This document shows, one piece after another, positions 262 to 28,992 of a stretch of 41,657 bases of DNA (its first letter is position 1; every line of letters starts with the position of its first letter). Below the pieces are notes generated by a model. That model was not told where the DNA came from. It searched no databases and was given only the letters and a program-made list of their open reading frames with translations. The position numbers and the translations under genes are program-made. The stretch lies in the NCBI RefSeq assembly GCF_003334315.1, contig NZ_QOWR01000044.1. The stretch is one strand, 5' to 3'. The stretch comes from Escherichia coli. Its GTDB lineage: Bacteria > Pseudomonadota > Gammaproteobacteria > Enterobacterales > Enterobacteriaceae.

Positions 262-1125
262 TCACAAATAGAGCGCCGGAAATATCAACCGGCTCACCCC
301 GCGCACCTTTAACGCATCAGCCAACGGCTCAACGTCTTCCGGCGTGGCGCTCGCCCAGCTTTGCGCCTCGCCATACACGCCGTGGGCATGAAACGCGTTC
401 AGGCGTACCGGAACATCGCCAAGTCCCTTGATAAACACCGCCAGTTCTTCGATGTGTTGCAAATAATCCACCTGGCCAGGGATTACCAGCAAACGCAGTT
501 CCGCCAGCTTACCGCGCTCTGCCAGCAAACAGATGCTGCGCTTAATCTGCTGATTATCGCGTCCGGTTAATTGTTGATGACATTCGCTCCCCCACGCTTT
601 GAGATCGAGCATTGCGCCGTCACACACCGGGAGTAATTTTTCCCAGCCGGTTTCGCTCAACATACCGTTACTGTCCACCAGACAGGTGAGATGGCGCAGT
701 TGCGGATCGTTTTTGATAGCAGTAAACAGCGCCACTACAAACGGCAGTTGGGTCGTGGCTTCGCCGCCGCTTACCGTTATCCCTTCAATAAACAGCACCG
801 CTTTGCGGACATGGCTAAGCACTTCGTCCACGCTCATGGATTGCGCCATCGGCGTGGCATGTTGCGGACACCTCTTCAGGCAGGTATCACACTGCTCGCA
901 GACCGCAGCGTTCCACACCACTTTGCCGTCAACAATCTGCAACGCCTGATGCGGACACTGTGGCACGCACTCTCCGCAATGATTACAGCGCCCCATCGTC
1001 CACGGATTGTGACAGTTTTTGCAGCGCAGATTGCAGCCCTGCAAAAACAGAGCCAGACGACTGCCTGGCCCGTCAACGCAGGAGAAGGGGATAATCTTAC
1101 TGACTAAAGCGCATCTGCTGTTCAT
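262..1125 (-). CDS. yjjW: Glycyl-radical enzyme activating enzyme (radical SAM, PflA-like with ferredoxin-like insert)
   Basis: 287-aa ORF; N-terminal CNLRCKNC (CxxxCxxC radical SAM motif) plus two CxxCxxCxxxCP ferredoxin-like clusters ([24 protein letters not shown]); matches E. coli YjjW in length and position next to yjjI. Confidence 0.9.
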
Positions 1126-2647
1126 GGCTTATCACGCGCGGCTGGCGTTCCAGAATACGAGTGTTGCGTGCGGCTTCTTCGCCCAGCCAGGTGGTGTTGG
1201 TGCGTGAACCTTCGGCGCGATATTTTTCTAAATCCGACAAACGCACCATATAACCGGTAACGCGAACCAGATCGTTACCGCTGACATTGGCGGTAAATTC
1301 ACGCATTCCGGCTTTAAAGGCACCGAGGCAAAGCTGTACCAGCGCCTGCGGATTACGTTTGATGGTTTCGTCGAGCGTCAGAATGTCGCTGATGCCGGAA
1401 TAATAATAAGCATGATGCGGGGCGACAGTTTGCAGATGGGTGATCGGATCTGGCTCATCGCCATAGGGTAAACGCGCGCCCGGCGTGGTGCCGATATCGG
1501 AACTGATCCCCGACTGTGCGTGTAACATGGCGCGTTTTTGCCAGCCATATTTCACGGGGGTATTGGCGACAAACTCCGCCAGTTGCGCGCTGATGCGATA
1601 ACCCACTTCATTTGCGGCGGCTTCTTTACCGTAGCGCGCGGCAATCCCTTCTTTCTCACACAGCAAGTTAACCGCTTCCGCCAGCCCATACATGCCAAAC
1701 ATTGGCACAAAACGTTCAGGGTTAATCAGCCCTTCTTTCACCAGGAAGCTATTCTCAAAGAAGTGTGATTGTTGATAGAGGAATTCACACCGCGCATCGA
1801 TGATGGCGATCTGCTGCTGGCAGTAGTGCGGTAGAGTGCGCGTAAAGAAGTCATCCAGCGATTCGCTGCGCTCGGCAATGGCTTTCAGGTTAAGGCGTAC
1901 CAGCGTGCTGCCACCACCCGCCAGCGGCAGTGAGTTGTAACAGCTCACAATCCCGTAGCCCCCTTTTGTGAAAATTTTATCATGCACCGGACCGTTGGCG
2001 ATGTGCGGTTTGCTACATTCACAGATGTTCTTCGCCACTTCCAGCAGCAGGTCATCAGGGGTGATTTCTGGATCGTAGATAAAGGTCAGGTTCGGTGAAA
2101 CCTGCTTCAACTCTGCATCTGCACGTAATATCGCACGGGTGATGGGCGAATCAGACGGGCCGATATTGGCGTGCATAAAGGCGTCTGGCAGGGTTCTGTC
2201 GAGGTAACGCCAGAAACGTTTTATTCGAATATCGATCTCGTCTTGTGTTAGAATTCTAACATACGGTTGCAACAACGCATCCAGTTGCCCCAGGTAGACC
2301 GGCATCGATGTGACCGACGGTACGTGGTGGTAAAGAATGGTCAGCAGAGAGAGTGCGTCATCAAGATCTTTCGCGCCTTCCAGCTCCAGCCATTCGGAAC
2401 CGTTCGCCAGAAAACGGGCGTAATCGGGTAAGACATAGCGCGGTTTGTACGGCGCATGACCTTCAAACATATCGCAGATTACACCCTCATCCAGCGCGCG
2501 GCGGGCCTCGGCAGGCAGCTGCGGATAAGGCAGATTGTTTTCTGCTTCCAGTGCCAGAAAATGGCGCTTCTGCTCCGGGCTAAGCACTGGGCTGGTGACA
2601 ATTTGCTGGCAACGTTGTTGCAGTGCATTTTCATGAGAAGTGGGCAT
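1097..2647 (-). CDS. yjjI: PFL-like glycyl radical enzyme family protein, function unknown
   Basis: 516-aa ORF; RVTGY (RVxGY glycyl-radical-like motif) near the C-terminus; overlaps the yjjW start by 29 bp; matches E. coli YjjI in length. Confidence 0.9.
1967..1982. promoter_or_regulatory. Candidate distal DeoR operator (O_E) of the deo operon
   Basis: tgtgaaaattttatca, a degenerate palindrome 279 bp upstream of O1, matching the remembered O_E-O1 spacing; could alternatively be a CRP-like site. Confidence 0.35.
2246..2261. promoter_or_regulatory. DeoR operator O1 (deoP1)
   Basis: Perfect 16-bp palindrome tgttagaattctaaca, exactly 599 bp upstream of the second operator, matching the known P1-P2 spacing. 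Confidence 0.75.
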
Positions 2648-2808
2648 CTTCTTTTCCTTTTATGCCGAAGGTGATGCGCCATTGTAAGAAGTTTCGTGAT
2701 GTTCACTTTGATCCTGATGCGTTTGCCACCACTGACGCATTCATTTGAAAGTGAATTATTTGAACCAGATCGCATTACAGTGATGCAAACTTGTAAGTAG
2801 ATTTCCTT

Positions 2809-2835
2809 AATTGTGATGTATATCGAAGTGTGTTG
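2809..2835 (+). promoter_or_regulatory. CRP/CytR binding region of deoP2
   Basis: tgtga-N6-tcgaa CRP-like site centred about 41 bp upstream of the inferred P2 start; position consistent with the CRP-1 site of deoP2. Confidence 0.4.
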
Positions 2836-2844
2836 CGGAGTAGA

Positions 2845-2860
2845 TGTTAGAATACTAACA
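2845..2860. promoter_or_regulatory. DeoR operator O2 overlapping the deoP2 -10
   Basis: tgttagaatactaaca palindrome containing a tagaat -10-like hexamer, 45 bp upstream of the deoC ATG. Confidence 0.75.
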
Positions 2861-2904
2861 AACTCGCAAGGTGAATTTTATTGGCGACAAGCCAGGAGAA
2901 TGAA

Positions 2905-3684
2905 ATGACTGATCTGAAAGCAAGCAGCCTGCGTGCACTGAAATTAATGGACCTGACCACCCTGAATGACGACGACACCGACGAGAAAGTAATTGCTCTG
3001 TGTCATCAGGCCAAAACCCCGGTCGGCAATACCGCCGCTATCTGTATCTATCCTCGCTTTATCCCGATTGCTCGCAAAACGCTGAAAGAGCAGGGCACCC
3101 CGGAAATCCGAATCGCTACGGTAACCAACTTCCCACACGGTAACGATGACATCGAAATCGCGCTGGCAGAAACCCGTGCGGCAATCGCCTACGGTGCAGA
3201 TGAAGTTGACGTTGTGTTCCCGTACCGCGCGCTGATGGCGGGTAACGAGCAGGTTGGTTTTGACCTGGTGAAAGCCTGTAAAGAGGCTTGCGCGGCAGCG
3301 AATGTACTGCTGAAAGTGATCATCGAAACCGGCGAACTGAAAGACGAAGCGCTGATCCGTAAAGCGTCTGAAATCTCCATCAAAGCGGGTGCGGACTTCA
3401 TCAAAACCTCTACCGGTAAAGTGGCTGTGAACGCGACGCCGGAAAGCGCGCGCATCATGATGGAAGTGATCCGTGATATGGGCGTAGAAAAAACCGTTGG
3501 TTTCAAACCGGCGGGCGGCGTGCGTACTGCGGAAGATGCGCAGAAATATCTCGCCATCGCAGATGAACTGTTCGGTGCTGACTGGGCTGATGCGCGTCAC
3601 TACCGCTTTGGTGCTTCCAGCCTGCTGGCAAGCCTGCTGAAAGCGCTGGGCCACGGCGACGGTAAGAGCGCCAGCAGCTACTAA
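2905..3684 (+). CDS. deoC: Deoxyribose-phosphate aldolase
   Basis: 259 aa from the ATG at 2905 ([29 protein letters not shown]...), preceded by AGGAG; the track ORF begins upstream at a TTG. Confidence 0.95.
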
Positions 3685-3698
3685 GTAAGATGCTTTAC

Positions 3699-3774
3699 GC
3701 CTGATGCGCTGCGCTTATCAGGCCTACGAGACGTATCTACCCGTAGGCCGGATAAGGCGTAGACGCATCCGGCA
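3699..3774. repeat. REP element pair
   Basis: gcctgatgcgctgcgcttatcaggcctac and gtaggccggataaggcgtagacgcatccggca palindromic units between deoC and deoA. Confidence 0.8.
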
Positions 3775-3810
3775 AAAGCCGCCTCATACTCTTTTCCTCG
3801 GGAGGTTACC

Positions 3811-5133
3811 TTGTTTCTCGCACAAGAAATTATTCGTAAAAAACGTGATGGTCATGCGCTAAGCGATGAAGAAATTCGTTTCTTTATCAACGGTATTCGC
3901 GACAACACTATCTCCGAAGGGCAGATTGCCGCCCTCGCGATGACCATTTTCTTCCACGATATGACAATGCCTGAGCGTGTCTCGCTGACCATGGCGATGC
4001 GAGATTCAGGAACCGTTCTCGACTGGAAAAGCCTGCATCTGAATGGCCCGATTGTTGATAAACACTCCACCGGCGGCGTCGGCGATGTGACTTCGCTGAT
4101 GTTGGGGCCGATGGTCGCAGCCTGCGGCGGCTATATTCCGATGATCTCTGGTCGCGGCCTCGGTCATACTGGCGGTACGCTCGACAAACTGGAATCCATC
4201 CCTGGCTTCGACATTTTCCCGGATGACAACCGTTTCCGCGAAATTATTAAAGACGTCGGCGTGGCGATTATCGGCCAGACCAGCTCACTGGCTCCGGCAG
4301 ATAAACGTTTCTACGCGACCCGCGATATTACCGCAACCGTGGACTCCATCCCGCTGATCACTGCCTCGATCCTGGCGAAGAAACTGGCGGAAGGTCTGGA
4401 TGCGCTGGTGATGGACGTGAAAGTGGGTAGCGGCGCGTTTATGCCGACCTACGAACTCTCTGAAGCCCTTGCCGAAGCGATTGTTGGCGTGGCTAACGGC
4501 GCTGGCGTGCGCACCACCGCGCTGCTCACCGACATGAATCAGGTACTGGCCTCCAGTGCAGGTAACGCGGTTGAAGTTCGTGAAGCGGTGCAGTTCCTGA
4601 CGGGTGAATATCGTAACCCGCGTCTGTTTGATGTCACGATGGCGCTGTGCGTGGAGATGCTGATCTCCGGCAAACTGGCGAAAGATGACGCCGAAGCGCG
4701 CGCGAAATTGCAGGCGGTGCTGGACAACGGTAAAGCGGCAGAAGTCTTTGGTCGTATGGTAGCGGCACAAAAAGGCCCGACCGACTTCGTTGAGAACTAC
4801 GCGAAGTATCTGCCGACAGCGATGCTGACGAAAGCAGTCTATGCTGATACCGAAGGTTTTGTCAGTGAAATGGATACCCGCGCGCTGGGGATGGCAGTGG
4901 TTGCAATGGGCGGCGGTCGTCGTCAGGCATCTGACACCATTGATTACAGCGTCGGCTTTACTGATATGGCGCGTTTGGGCGACCAGGTAGACGGTCAGCG
5001 TCCGCTGGCGGTTATCCACGCGAAAGACGAAAACAGCTGGCAGGAAGCGGCGAAAGCGGTGAAAGCGGCAATTAAACTTGCCGATAAAGCACCGGAAAGC
5101 ACACCAACTGTCTATCGCCGTATCAGCGAATAA
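3811..5133 (+). CDS. deoA: Thymidine phosphorylase (TTG start)
   Basis: 440 aa ([25 protein letters not shown]...); TTG start with GGGAGG 5 nt upstream. Confidence 0.95.
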
Positions 5134-5163
5134 CGGTATACTGATCTGATCATTTAAATTTGA

Positions 5164-26529: not shown

Positions 26530-28992
26530 ATGCGAGTGTTGAAGTTCGGCGGTACATCAGTGGCAAATGCAGAACGTTTTCTGCGGGTTGCCGATATTCT
26601 GGAAAGCAATGCCAGGCAGGGGCAGGTGGCCACCGTCCTCTCTGCCCCCGCCAAAATCACCAACCACCTGGTGGCGATGATTGAAAAAACCATTAGCGGC
26701 CAGGATGCTTTACCCAATATCAGCGATGCTGAACGTATTTTTGCCGAACTTCTGACGGGACTCGCCGCCGCCCAGCCGGGATTCCCGCTGGCGCAATTGA
26801 AAACTTTCGTCGACCAGGAATTTGCTCAAATAAAACATGTCCTGCATGGCATTAGTTTGTTAGGGCAGTGCCCGGATAGCATCAACGCTGCGCTGATTTG
26901 CCGTGGCGAGAAAATGTCGATCGCCATTATGGCCGGCGTGTTAGAAGCGCGTGGTCACAACGTTACCGTTATCGATCCGGTCGAAAAACTACTGGCAGTG
27001 GGGCATTACCTCGAATCTACCGTCGATATTGCTGAGTCCACCCGCCGTATTGCGGCAAGTCGTATTCCGGCTGATCACATGGTGCTGATGGCAGGTTTCA
27101 CCGCCGGTAATGAAAAAGGCGAACTGGTGGTGCTTGGACGTAACGGTTCCGACTACTCCGCTGCGGTGCTGGCTGCCTGTTTACGCGCCGATTGTTGCGA
27201 GATTTGGACGGACGTTGACGGGGTTTATACCTGCGACCCGCGTCAGGTGCCCGATGCGAGGTTGTTGAAGTCGATGTCCTACCAGGAAGCGATGGAGCTT
27301 TCCTACTTCGGCGCTAAAGTTCTTCACCCCCGCACCATTACCCCCATCGCCCAGTTCCAGATCCCTTGCCTGATTAAAAATACCGGAAATCCTCAAGCAC
27401 CAGGTACGCTCATTGGTGCCAGCCGTGATGAAGACGAATTACCGGTCAAGGGCATTTCCAATCTGAATAACATGGCAATGTTCAGCGTTTCCGGCCCGGG
27501 GATGAAAGGAATGGTCGGCATGGCGGCGCGCGTCTTTGCTGCAATGTCACGCGCCCGTATTTCCGTGGTGCTGATTACGCAATCATCTTCCGAATACAGT
27601 ATCAGTTTCTGCGTTCCGCAAAGCGACTGTGTGCGAGCTGAACGGGCAATGCAGGAAGAGTTCTACCTGGAACTGAAAGAAGGCTTACTGGAGCCGCTGG
27701 CGGTGACGGAACGGCTGGCCATTATCTCGGTGGTAGGTGATGGTATGCGCACCTTGCGTGGGATCTCGGCGAAATTCTTTGCCGCGCTGGCCCGCGCCAA
27801 TATCAACATTGTCGCCATTGCTCAGGGATCTTCTGAACGCTCAATCTCTGTCGTGGTAAATAACGATGATGCGACCACTGGCGTGCGCGTTACTCATCAG
27901 ATGCTGTTCAATACCGATCAGGTTATCGAAGTGTTTGTGATTGGCGTCGGTGGCGTTGGCGGTGCGCTGCTGGAGCAACTGAAGCGTCAACAAAGCTGGC
28001 TGAAGAATAAACATATCGACTTACGTGTCTGCGGCGTTGCCAACTCGAAGGCTCTGCTTACCAATGTGCATGGCCTAAACCTGGAAAACTGGCAGGAAGA
28101 ACTGGCGCAAGCCAAAGAGCCGTTTAATCTCGGGCGCTTAATTCGCCTCGTGAAAGAATATCATCTGCTAAACCCGGTCATTGTTGACTGCACCTCCAGC
28201 CAGGCAGTGGCGGATCAATATGCCGACTTCTTGCGCGAAGGTTTCCACGTTGTCACGCCGAACAAAAAGGCCAACACCTCGTCGATGGATTACTACCATC
28301 TGTTGCGTCATGCGGCGGAAAAATCGCGGCGTAAATTCCTCTATGACACCAACGTTGGGGCTGGATTACCGGTTATTGAGAACCTGCAAAATCTGCTCAA
28401 TGCTGGTGATGAATTGATGAAGTTCTCCGGCATTCTTTCAGGTTCGCTTTCTTATATCTTCGGCAAGTTAGACGAAGGCATGAGTTTCTCCGAGGCGACT
28501 ACTCTGGCGCGGGAAATGGGTTATACCGAACCGGATCCGCGAGATGATCTTTCTGGTATGGATGTAGCGCGTAAGCTATTGATTCTCGCTCGTGAAACGG
28601 GACGTGAACTGGAGCTGGTGGATATTGAAATTGAACCTGTGCTGCCCGCAGAGTTTAACGCTGAGGGTGATGTTGCCGCTTTTATGGCGAATCTGTCACA
28701 GCTCGACGATCTCTTTGCCGCGCGCGTGGCGAAGGCCCGTGATGAAGGAAAAGTTTTGCGCTATGTTGGCAATATTGATGAAGATGGTGCCTGCCGCGTG
28801 AAGATTGCCGAAGTGGATGGTAATGATCCGCTGTTCAAAGTGAAAAATGGCGAAAACGCCCTGGCCTTTTATAGCCACTATTATCAGCCGCTGCCGTTGG
28901 TCCTGCGCGGATACGGTGCGGGTAATGACGTTACAGCTGCCGGTGTCTTTGCCGATCTGCTACGCACCCTCTCATGGAAGTTAGGAGTCTAA
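26530..28992 (+). CDS. thrA: Bifunctional aspartokinase I / homoserine dehydrogenase I
   Basis: 820 aa from the ATG at 26530 ([48 protein letters not shown]...). Confidence 0.97.

Follow-up and report, generated by a model that had tools for sequence, protein, structure and literature searches.

Within a 41,657-nucleotide stretch of Escherichia coli DNA (contig NZ_QOWR01000044.1; hereafter, the window), the upstream promoter of the deoCABD operon, deoP1, together with its DeoR operator O1 and a further operator, OE, lies inside the codons of the divergent neighbour gene yjjI, where the DNA is conserved beyond the needs of the YjjI protein. The region is very probably the canonical control region of E. 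coli deoCABD. Positions 1000-3700 of the window match 5424 of the 5426 complete E. coli genomes, several of them at 100% identity; the sequence is chromosomal, and the features that the RefSeq annotation places beneath it are yjjW, yjjI and deoC. In K-12 MG1655, where a coordinate on NC_000913.3 equals the window coordinate plus 4,614,418, the gene order is yjjV, yjjW and yjjI on the minus strand, then deoC-deoA-deoB-deoD on the plus strand. The set of operators and promoters was found directly upstream of deoC-deoA-deoB-deoD in K-12 and 5424 E. coli genomes, as well as in 76 genomes searched with tblastn. The yjjI-deoC intergenic region measures 257 bp, so short that deoP1/O1 and OE fall inside the divergent yjjI.

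The deoP1 promoter and two DeoR operators within yjjI

The operator palindrome, TGTTAGAA.TTCTAACA, occurs as an exact copy at 2246-2261 (O1) and as a one-mismatch copy at 2845-2860 (O2), with a start-to-start distance of 599 bp, while OE lies 279 bp upstream of O1 and is identical to it at 12 of 16 positions (Table 1). O1 and OE stand in the same codon phase because 279 = 93 x 3. When up to three mismatches are allowed, O1 and O2 are the only sites within the 41.6 kb, compared with 0.12 expected; with up to four, four sites are found versus about 1.3 expected, the two with exactly four mismatches being OE and an unrelated one at 28979. Taken by itself, OE is not significant in one sequence, and its validation comes from cross-genus conservation and from the literature.

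Secondary literature describes a deo operon whose tandem promoters each carry a single operator, O1 and O2, with OE as a third site roughly 300 bp upstream of O1; the O1-O2 spacing is given there as 599 bp, and both promoters are repressed by DeoR via looping. The same accounts describe loops between all deo operator sites seen by electron microscopy, and O1-O2 looping measured in vivo in a loopometer assay. A sequence-only reading of the window had taken the palindromes 599 bp apart for the deo operators and had noticed a degenerate third site 279 bp further upstream; its coordinates and spacing are exact and agree with the published spacing, and the third site is indeed present, at 1967-1982, close to where the literature places it. 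The figure of 279 bp, like the placement of operators over the -10 regions, reportedly goes back to Dandanell and Hammer in 1985 and Valentin-Hansen and colleagues in 1986. Further primary deo papers are those of Valentin-Hansen et al. in 1982, Dandanell et al. in 1987 and Amouyal et al. in 1989, cited here through secondary papers. In the published mechanism, DeoR binds the three 16-bp operators, with O1 over the deoP1 -10, O2 over the deoP2 -10 and OE upstream of O1, and represses deoP1 and deoP2 through DNA looping.

An extended -10 element, TGT-TAGAAT, can be read directly from the sequence in O1 as well as in O2. The location of the upstream promoter was addressed by Choe et al. 2019 (PMC6389913), who place one deoCABD promoter "in an upstream gene, yjjI". 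In the deoC row of Supplementary Data 5 of that paper, the summit of the sigma70 chromatin immunoprecipitation (ChIP) signal is given as 4614709, the entry labelled 'RegulonDB' as 4614642 and the gene start as 4615346. We took the 'RegulonDB' column as the start site minus 60, a reading checked on two rows (thrL and galE) against the start sites of these genes. Under this reading, deoCp1 starts at 4614702, which is window position 2261 (+), the last base of O1, and the sigma70 summit falls at window position 2268; in yjjI terms, both lie at codon 129 or just upstream. A generic promoter scan reported neither P1 nor P2, and returned one minus-strand match at chance level; the two promoters are missed because they carry extended -10 elements and poor -35 elements.

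These positions bear out the proposal that deoP1 lies within the yjjI open reading frame (ORF) and that its transcription is antisense to and overlaps yjjI, since P1 transcripts must cross codons 1-129. We infer that they would be antisense to the first 387 nt of yjjI and would also traverse its predicted FNR-dependent promoter, which is described below. Two plus-strand ORFs in the 644-nt P1 leader (2353-2583 and 2456-2674) were discarded as coding sequences, being open in only 11-12 of 75 genomes.

Table 1. Coordinates of genes, operators and promoter elements in the window
Feature	Position	Strand	Basis and remarks
yjjW	262-1125	-	yjjI overlaps yjjW start by 29 bp (1097-1125)
yjjI, YjjI-family glycyl radical enzyme, 516 aa	1097-2647	-	ORF list, annotation, TIGR04040
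DeoR operator OE, TGTGAAAATTTTATCA	1967-1982	.	Sequence; yjjI codons 222-227 (H D K I F T)
Conserved A/T-rich block GCCAGAAACGTTTTATTCGA	2209-2228	+	About -52 to -33 of deoP1; yjjI codons ~140-146
DeoR operator O1, perfect palindrome TGTTAGAATTCTAACA	2246-2261	.	Sequence; yjjI codons 129-134 (Y V R I L T)
deoP1 extended -10 (TGT TAGAAT) within O1	2246-2254	+	Sequence; start site 2261
Predicted yjjI promoter	2681-2721	-	-10 TACAAT 2686-2681; putative start ~2673; class II geometry
Predicted FNR half-box within TTGATCCTGATGCG	2708-2721, centre 2714.5	-	TTTGATCC conserved
deoP2 CRP/CytR region	2759-2827	+	CRP ChIP-seq motif, alignment, literature
Distal CRP site TTTGAACCAGATCGCA	2759-2774	+	Conserved in alignment
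Proximal CRP site TGTGATGTATATCGAA	2812-2827	+	CRP ChIP-seq motif in yjjI/deoC intergenic region
DeoR operator O2, TGTTAGAATACTAACA	2845-2860	.	Overlaps deoP2 extended -10; P2 start ~2860 (+)
deoC, first gene of deoCABD	2905-3684	+	ORF list, RefSeq annotation

DNA-level constraint on yjjI codons and its distribution

For the operators to be intragenic, yjjI must be a genuine coding sequence at its 5' end. YjjI scores 788 bits against TIGR04040 (YjjI family glycine radical enzyme; PF11230), for which the cutoff is 498, and its residues 11-504 align end to end with profile positions 1-497 of 497. The product of yjjW, which adjoins yjjI, is a YjjW-family activase (398 bits against TIGR04041, cutoff 250), and the yjjI-yjjW pairing is retained in every homolog context examined. 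Among the 75 distinct yjjI genes adjoining deoC that form our conservation set, nucleotide diversity in codons 11-128 is 0.12 at first, 0.085 at second and 0.50 at third codon positions, the same periodicity as in the remainder of the gene. In-frame stops seen in six genera proved to lie only at projected codon 1, upstream of the true start of those genes. The annotated yjjI start is real and the gene is full-length. The ORF at 1097-2647 on the minus strand is as the sequence-only reading had it, and corresponds to the annotated yjjI of K-12 and of 5424 of the 5426 genomes; the shorter protein that would have moved the palindromes out of the gene is contradicted by the coverage of the N-terminus by TIGR04040 and by the coding-type evolution of codons 11-128, and O1 and OE do occupy yjjI codons 129-134 and 222-227. 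Separately, a 574-aa database protein (P0004), encoded on a contig of 2.9 kb, combines the Pfam domains of YjjI (PF11230) and DeoC (PF01791); it is almost certainly the product of misassembly or of faulty gene calling across the divergent yjjI/deoC pair.

We then measured third-position diversity in six-codon windows along yjjI. O1 ranks first and OE third of 511 windows, the second rank being held by a window that overlaps O1. In an amino-acid-matched codon resampling, 0 of 20,000 draws reached the observed synonymous conservation, for O1 and for OE each. O1 fixes the rare codons AGA131 and CTA133. Conservation also extends to the third positions of the block at 2209-2228, which fixes the rare codons CGA141 and ATA142 (resampling P = 2e-4); this block (AAACGTTTTATT) could be an UP-element or -35 region of deoP1, or a site for a further factor. 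The whole gene displays four synonymous troughs, namely O1, the block upstream of P1, OE and the overlap with the yjjW start. The last of these, in the final yjjI codons (~506-512), fits with a yjjW ribosome-binding site and start embedded in yjjI.

The encoded residues behave differently in the wider family. Where deoC is adjacent, residue 132 is invariably Ile, and in other loci it is N, E, S or D; residue 131 can be R, K or G; and in homologs at 35-57% identity the O1 and OE positions fall in hypervariable, indel-prone loops between conserved motifs. Since the encoded residues vary in this way, the protein does not explain the conservation of O1 and OE. Synonymous conservation at these sites exceeds the background of the gene and is specific to lineages in which deoC adjoins yjjI. 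O1, OE and the -52 to -33 block are under DNA-level purifying selection atop the protein code, and the operators now constrain both the codon choice and the protein sequence of YjjI.

The distribution of the arrangement was established in a scan of one genome per species, which yielded 80 yjjI loci, from Escherichia to Proteus, with deoC adjacent in 76 genomes. A divergent deoC-deoA adjoins yjjI in all Enterobacteriaceae sampled, in Hafnia and in Edwardsiella, whereas Proteus has no such neighbour. All deo-adjacent genomes carry O1 at offset 386 of the coding sequence, with 0-2 mismatches, and an almost unvarying OE at offset 665; O2 is found at the homologous intergenic position in all deo-adjacent genera with 1-5 mismatches, and is conserved less than O1 (loci L002-L077). 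The O1-O2 distance ranges from 568 to 612 bp between genera, whereas the OE-O1 distance is constant at 279 bp, locked by the reading frame. In Hafnia and Edwardsiella (L072, L075), the yjjI-deoC intergenic region spans 458-473 bp, about 200 bp longer than in Enterobacteriaceae, and the extra leader segment between O2 and deoC is conserved between both genera, as for instance in GGAACCAAGTCCGCTCGCCAACG.

The operators are absent from 10 of 10 loci in which deoC is not adjacent, which comprise Proteus, Providencia, others and a syntenic metagenome-assembled genome (MAG) that has deoBD only. In Proteus, the O1 position shows 6-8 mismatches and the OE position 11-12; six further loci, representing four distinct yjjI genes, lack both sites, with 7-8 and 10-15 mismatches, and have OPT, nupC, pagP or deoB-deoD as neighbours. 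The Proteus yjjI abuts ytjB-serB-radA, genes that in E. coli lie just beyond deoCABD. The arrangement occurs only where deoC is the neighbour, that is, in Enterobacteriaceae, Hafnia and Edwardsiella. The simplest reading is that the operators and P1 were written into two tolerant, variable surface loops of yjjI, a gene that already existed when deoCABD came to adjoin it. Nucleoside genes are found beside yjjI in two other settings. In a distant lineage, yjjI is preceded on its own strand, at a distance of 70 bp, by a gene for a NupC-family nucleoside transporter (L084, 2681-3931); in the syntenic MAG, deoB-deoD is the divergent neighbour of yjjI, and deoC, deoA and the operators are all missing (L085, 547-2693). 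A general linkage of yjjI with nucleoside genes found no support in distant homologs, none being present in four distant homolog neighbourhoods, in Proteus, in Providencia or in L082/L083.

Several points weigh against this account. The operator-free outgroups are also the most divergent sequences, so that the absence of operators is partly confounded with distance, and the outgroup comparison covered operator positions and neighbour genes. At deoP1, the mapping of the start site hinges on a column reading checked on two rows, and the sigma70 peak of deoC was called in the evolved strain eMS57 only. DeoR occupancy and looping at O1, O2 and OE rest on the literature, mostly via secondary papers.

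A predicted yjjI promoter inside the O1-O2 loop

The intergenic region was aligned across 22 genera or species. Its yjjI-proximal half holds two conserved islands, TTTGATCC at 2707-2714 and ATTGTA at 2681-2686, the latter reading TACAAT on the yjjI strand. The half-box TTTGATCC and TACAAT are together predicted to form a class II FNR-dependent yjjI promoter with a start near 2673. In agreement with this prediction, an FNR ChIP study assigned a peak to yjjI, at about window position 2740, and reported yjjI as directly FNR-activated, with its start site listed as unknown. A biclustering study likewise found an FNR motif upstream of yjjI, and clustered yjjI with FNR/nitrate-regulated genes.

The deoC-proximal CRP sites have centres 53 bp apart, at -40.5 and -93.5 relative to the deoP2 start. 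Regulation of deoP2 by CRP and CytR has been described. A CRP ChIP-seq experiment in enterotoxigenic E. coli H10407 (PMC4287617) called an additional peak inside yjjI, 544 bp from the deoP2 CRP peak. The motif of this intragenic peak, at 2309-2324 (minus strand, CGTACCGTCGGTCACA), was rejected as a conserved site, as it is a poor motif with ordinary third-position wobble. Given that 544 bp is close to the O1-O2 spacing, we speculate that the intragenic peak might reflect indirect, loop-mediated cross-linking.

deoP1 fires rightward from 2261 and the predicted yjjI promoter would fire leftward from about 2673, so that the two face each other across about 410 bp; the latter would sit inside the O1-O2 loop, with O1 and OE in the transcribed region of yjjI. 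Owing to the convergent promoters and the position in the loop, transcriptional interference between deoP1 and yjjI, antisense pairing and a DeoR roadblock would be geometrically possible, as the sequence-only reading had suggested for interference. In the literature searched we found no main-text paper connecting yjjI and DeoR, and no yjjI expression data in deoR or P1 mutants.

The intragenic palindromes could in principle be coincidental or reflect a protein or mRNA constraint, or the 5' end of yjjI could be over-annotated, and OE, with its four mismatches, is indeed no better than chance in 41.6 kb when taken alone. This explanation has next to no probability left and is refuted by our results: O1 is an exact 16-mer where 0.12 sites would be expected even at up to three mismatches, its synonymous sites and those of OE are the most conserved of the gene while the residues they encode vary across the wider family, a sigma70 peak and a RegulonDB promoter coincide with O1, and the N-terminus lies within the family model and evolves as coding. 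A different proposal is that the overlap is a selected device, in which the convergent deoP1 and yjjI promoters interfere by polymerase collision, promoter occlusion or antisense RNA, such that deoxynucleoside catabolism from P1 and the anaerobic YjjI/YjjW system would be reciprocally expressed. The P1 start at 2261 (+) does face the predicted yjjI start at about 2673 (-), so that transcription would overlap over about 410 nt; in addition, FNR binds at yjjI and activates it, and the layout is kept across many genera. Yet this conservation is fully accounted for by the function of DeoR and P1 for deo alone, the O1-O2 distance drifts between 568 and 612 bp, and the yjjI start site is itself a prediction; moreover, DeoR normally keeps P1 repressed and yjjI expression is confined to anaerobic conditions, so that simultaneous firing may be rare. 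We therefore regard a selected device as doubtful.

Alternatively, DeoR might also repress yjjI, the O1-O2 loop enclosing its promoter and DeoR at O1 and OE blocking elongation. In that case yjjI-yjjW would belong, unrecognised, to the DeoR regulon and might act, in anaerobiosis, on a substrate derived from nucleosides or deoxyribose. This would suit the placement of the predicted promoter (2673-2721) between O1 and O2 and the transcription of O1 and OE with yjjI, as well as the NupC-type transporter upstream of yjjI in one outgroup, the divergent deoB-deoD in another, and the similarity of the YjjI family to class III ribonucleotide reductase (NrdD-like). It is nevertheless quite improbable, as nucleoside genes are missing from the four distant homolog neighbourhoods, Proteus, Providencia and L082/L083, the deoBD case belongs to the same syntenic region, and expression clustering groups yjjI with FNR/nitrate-regulated genes. 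Stated more broadly, the embedding may couple the two units, with looping or a roadblock, P1 transcription, or both setting anaerobic yjjI expression by deoxynucleoside availability; we consider this unlikely, although it would make yjjI-yjjW a cryptic member of the DeoR regulon and provide a clue to the substrate of the orphan enzyme YjjI. Neither interference nor a roadblock is needed to explain the conservation of the operators, for which the known deo function suffices.

Relation to known systems and neighbouring features

The sequences, the 599 and 279 bp spacings and the position of the deoP1/O1, deoP2/O2 and OE elements are identical to those of the E. coli deoCABD region, of which this is the same region, with nothing that differs. 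The locus is a re-identification of the classic system of long-range repression by looping and adds nothing to the E. coli map: its operators and promoters belong to a textbook case of looping, and a promoter in yjjI is already in print (PMC6389913). What is added here is the quantitative evidence for dual coding constraint and for a lineage-specific origin of the intragenic sites, and the predicted yjjI promoter in the loop. Auxiliary operators such as lacO2 in lacZ, galOI in galE and the PurR operator in purB likewise place a repressor site in codons, with synonymous constraint, and are used for looping or as a roadblock, within a gene of the regulated operon itself and in sense transcription. 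The deo case is unlike those in that a complete promoter and two operators lie in a divergent neighbour, so that the transcript under control runs antisense to the gene that harbours them. In coliphage 186 pR/pL and other face-to-face pairs, there are similarly promoters a few hundred bp apart and overlapping transcripts; in systems of the 186 type interference has been measured, whereas for deoP1 and yjjI it is a geometric possibility that involves a predicted yjjI start.

The region offers a clean natural case of regulatory DNA in the codons of a neighbour, in which synonymous sites are frozen, rare AGA, CTA and ATA codons are forced and otherwise variable residues are locked. A practical consequence is that codon optimisation or recoding of yjjI would silently destroy deoP1, O1 and OE. 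The predicted FNR-dependent promoter of the orphan YjjI would lie within the O1-O2 loop and face deoP1, and expression of the enzyme might respond to deoxynucleoside availability.

Downstream of the control region, inverted repeats resembling repetitive extragenic palindromic (REP) elements (gcctgatgcg...cttatcaggcctac / gtaggccggataaggcg...catccggca) occupy the deoC-deoA intercistronic gap, at window positions 3690-3790, and the start codon of deoA is TTG at 3811. The sigma70 ChIP table of PMC6389913 also lists a shared peak for the internal deoB promoter, with its summit at window position 5152; the RegulonDB-derived start of this promoter falls at about 5149, where deoA ends, and precedes the start of deoB (5185) by 36 bp.

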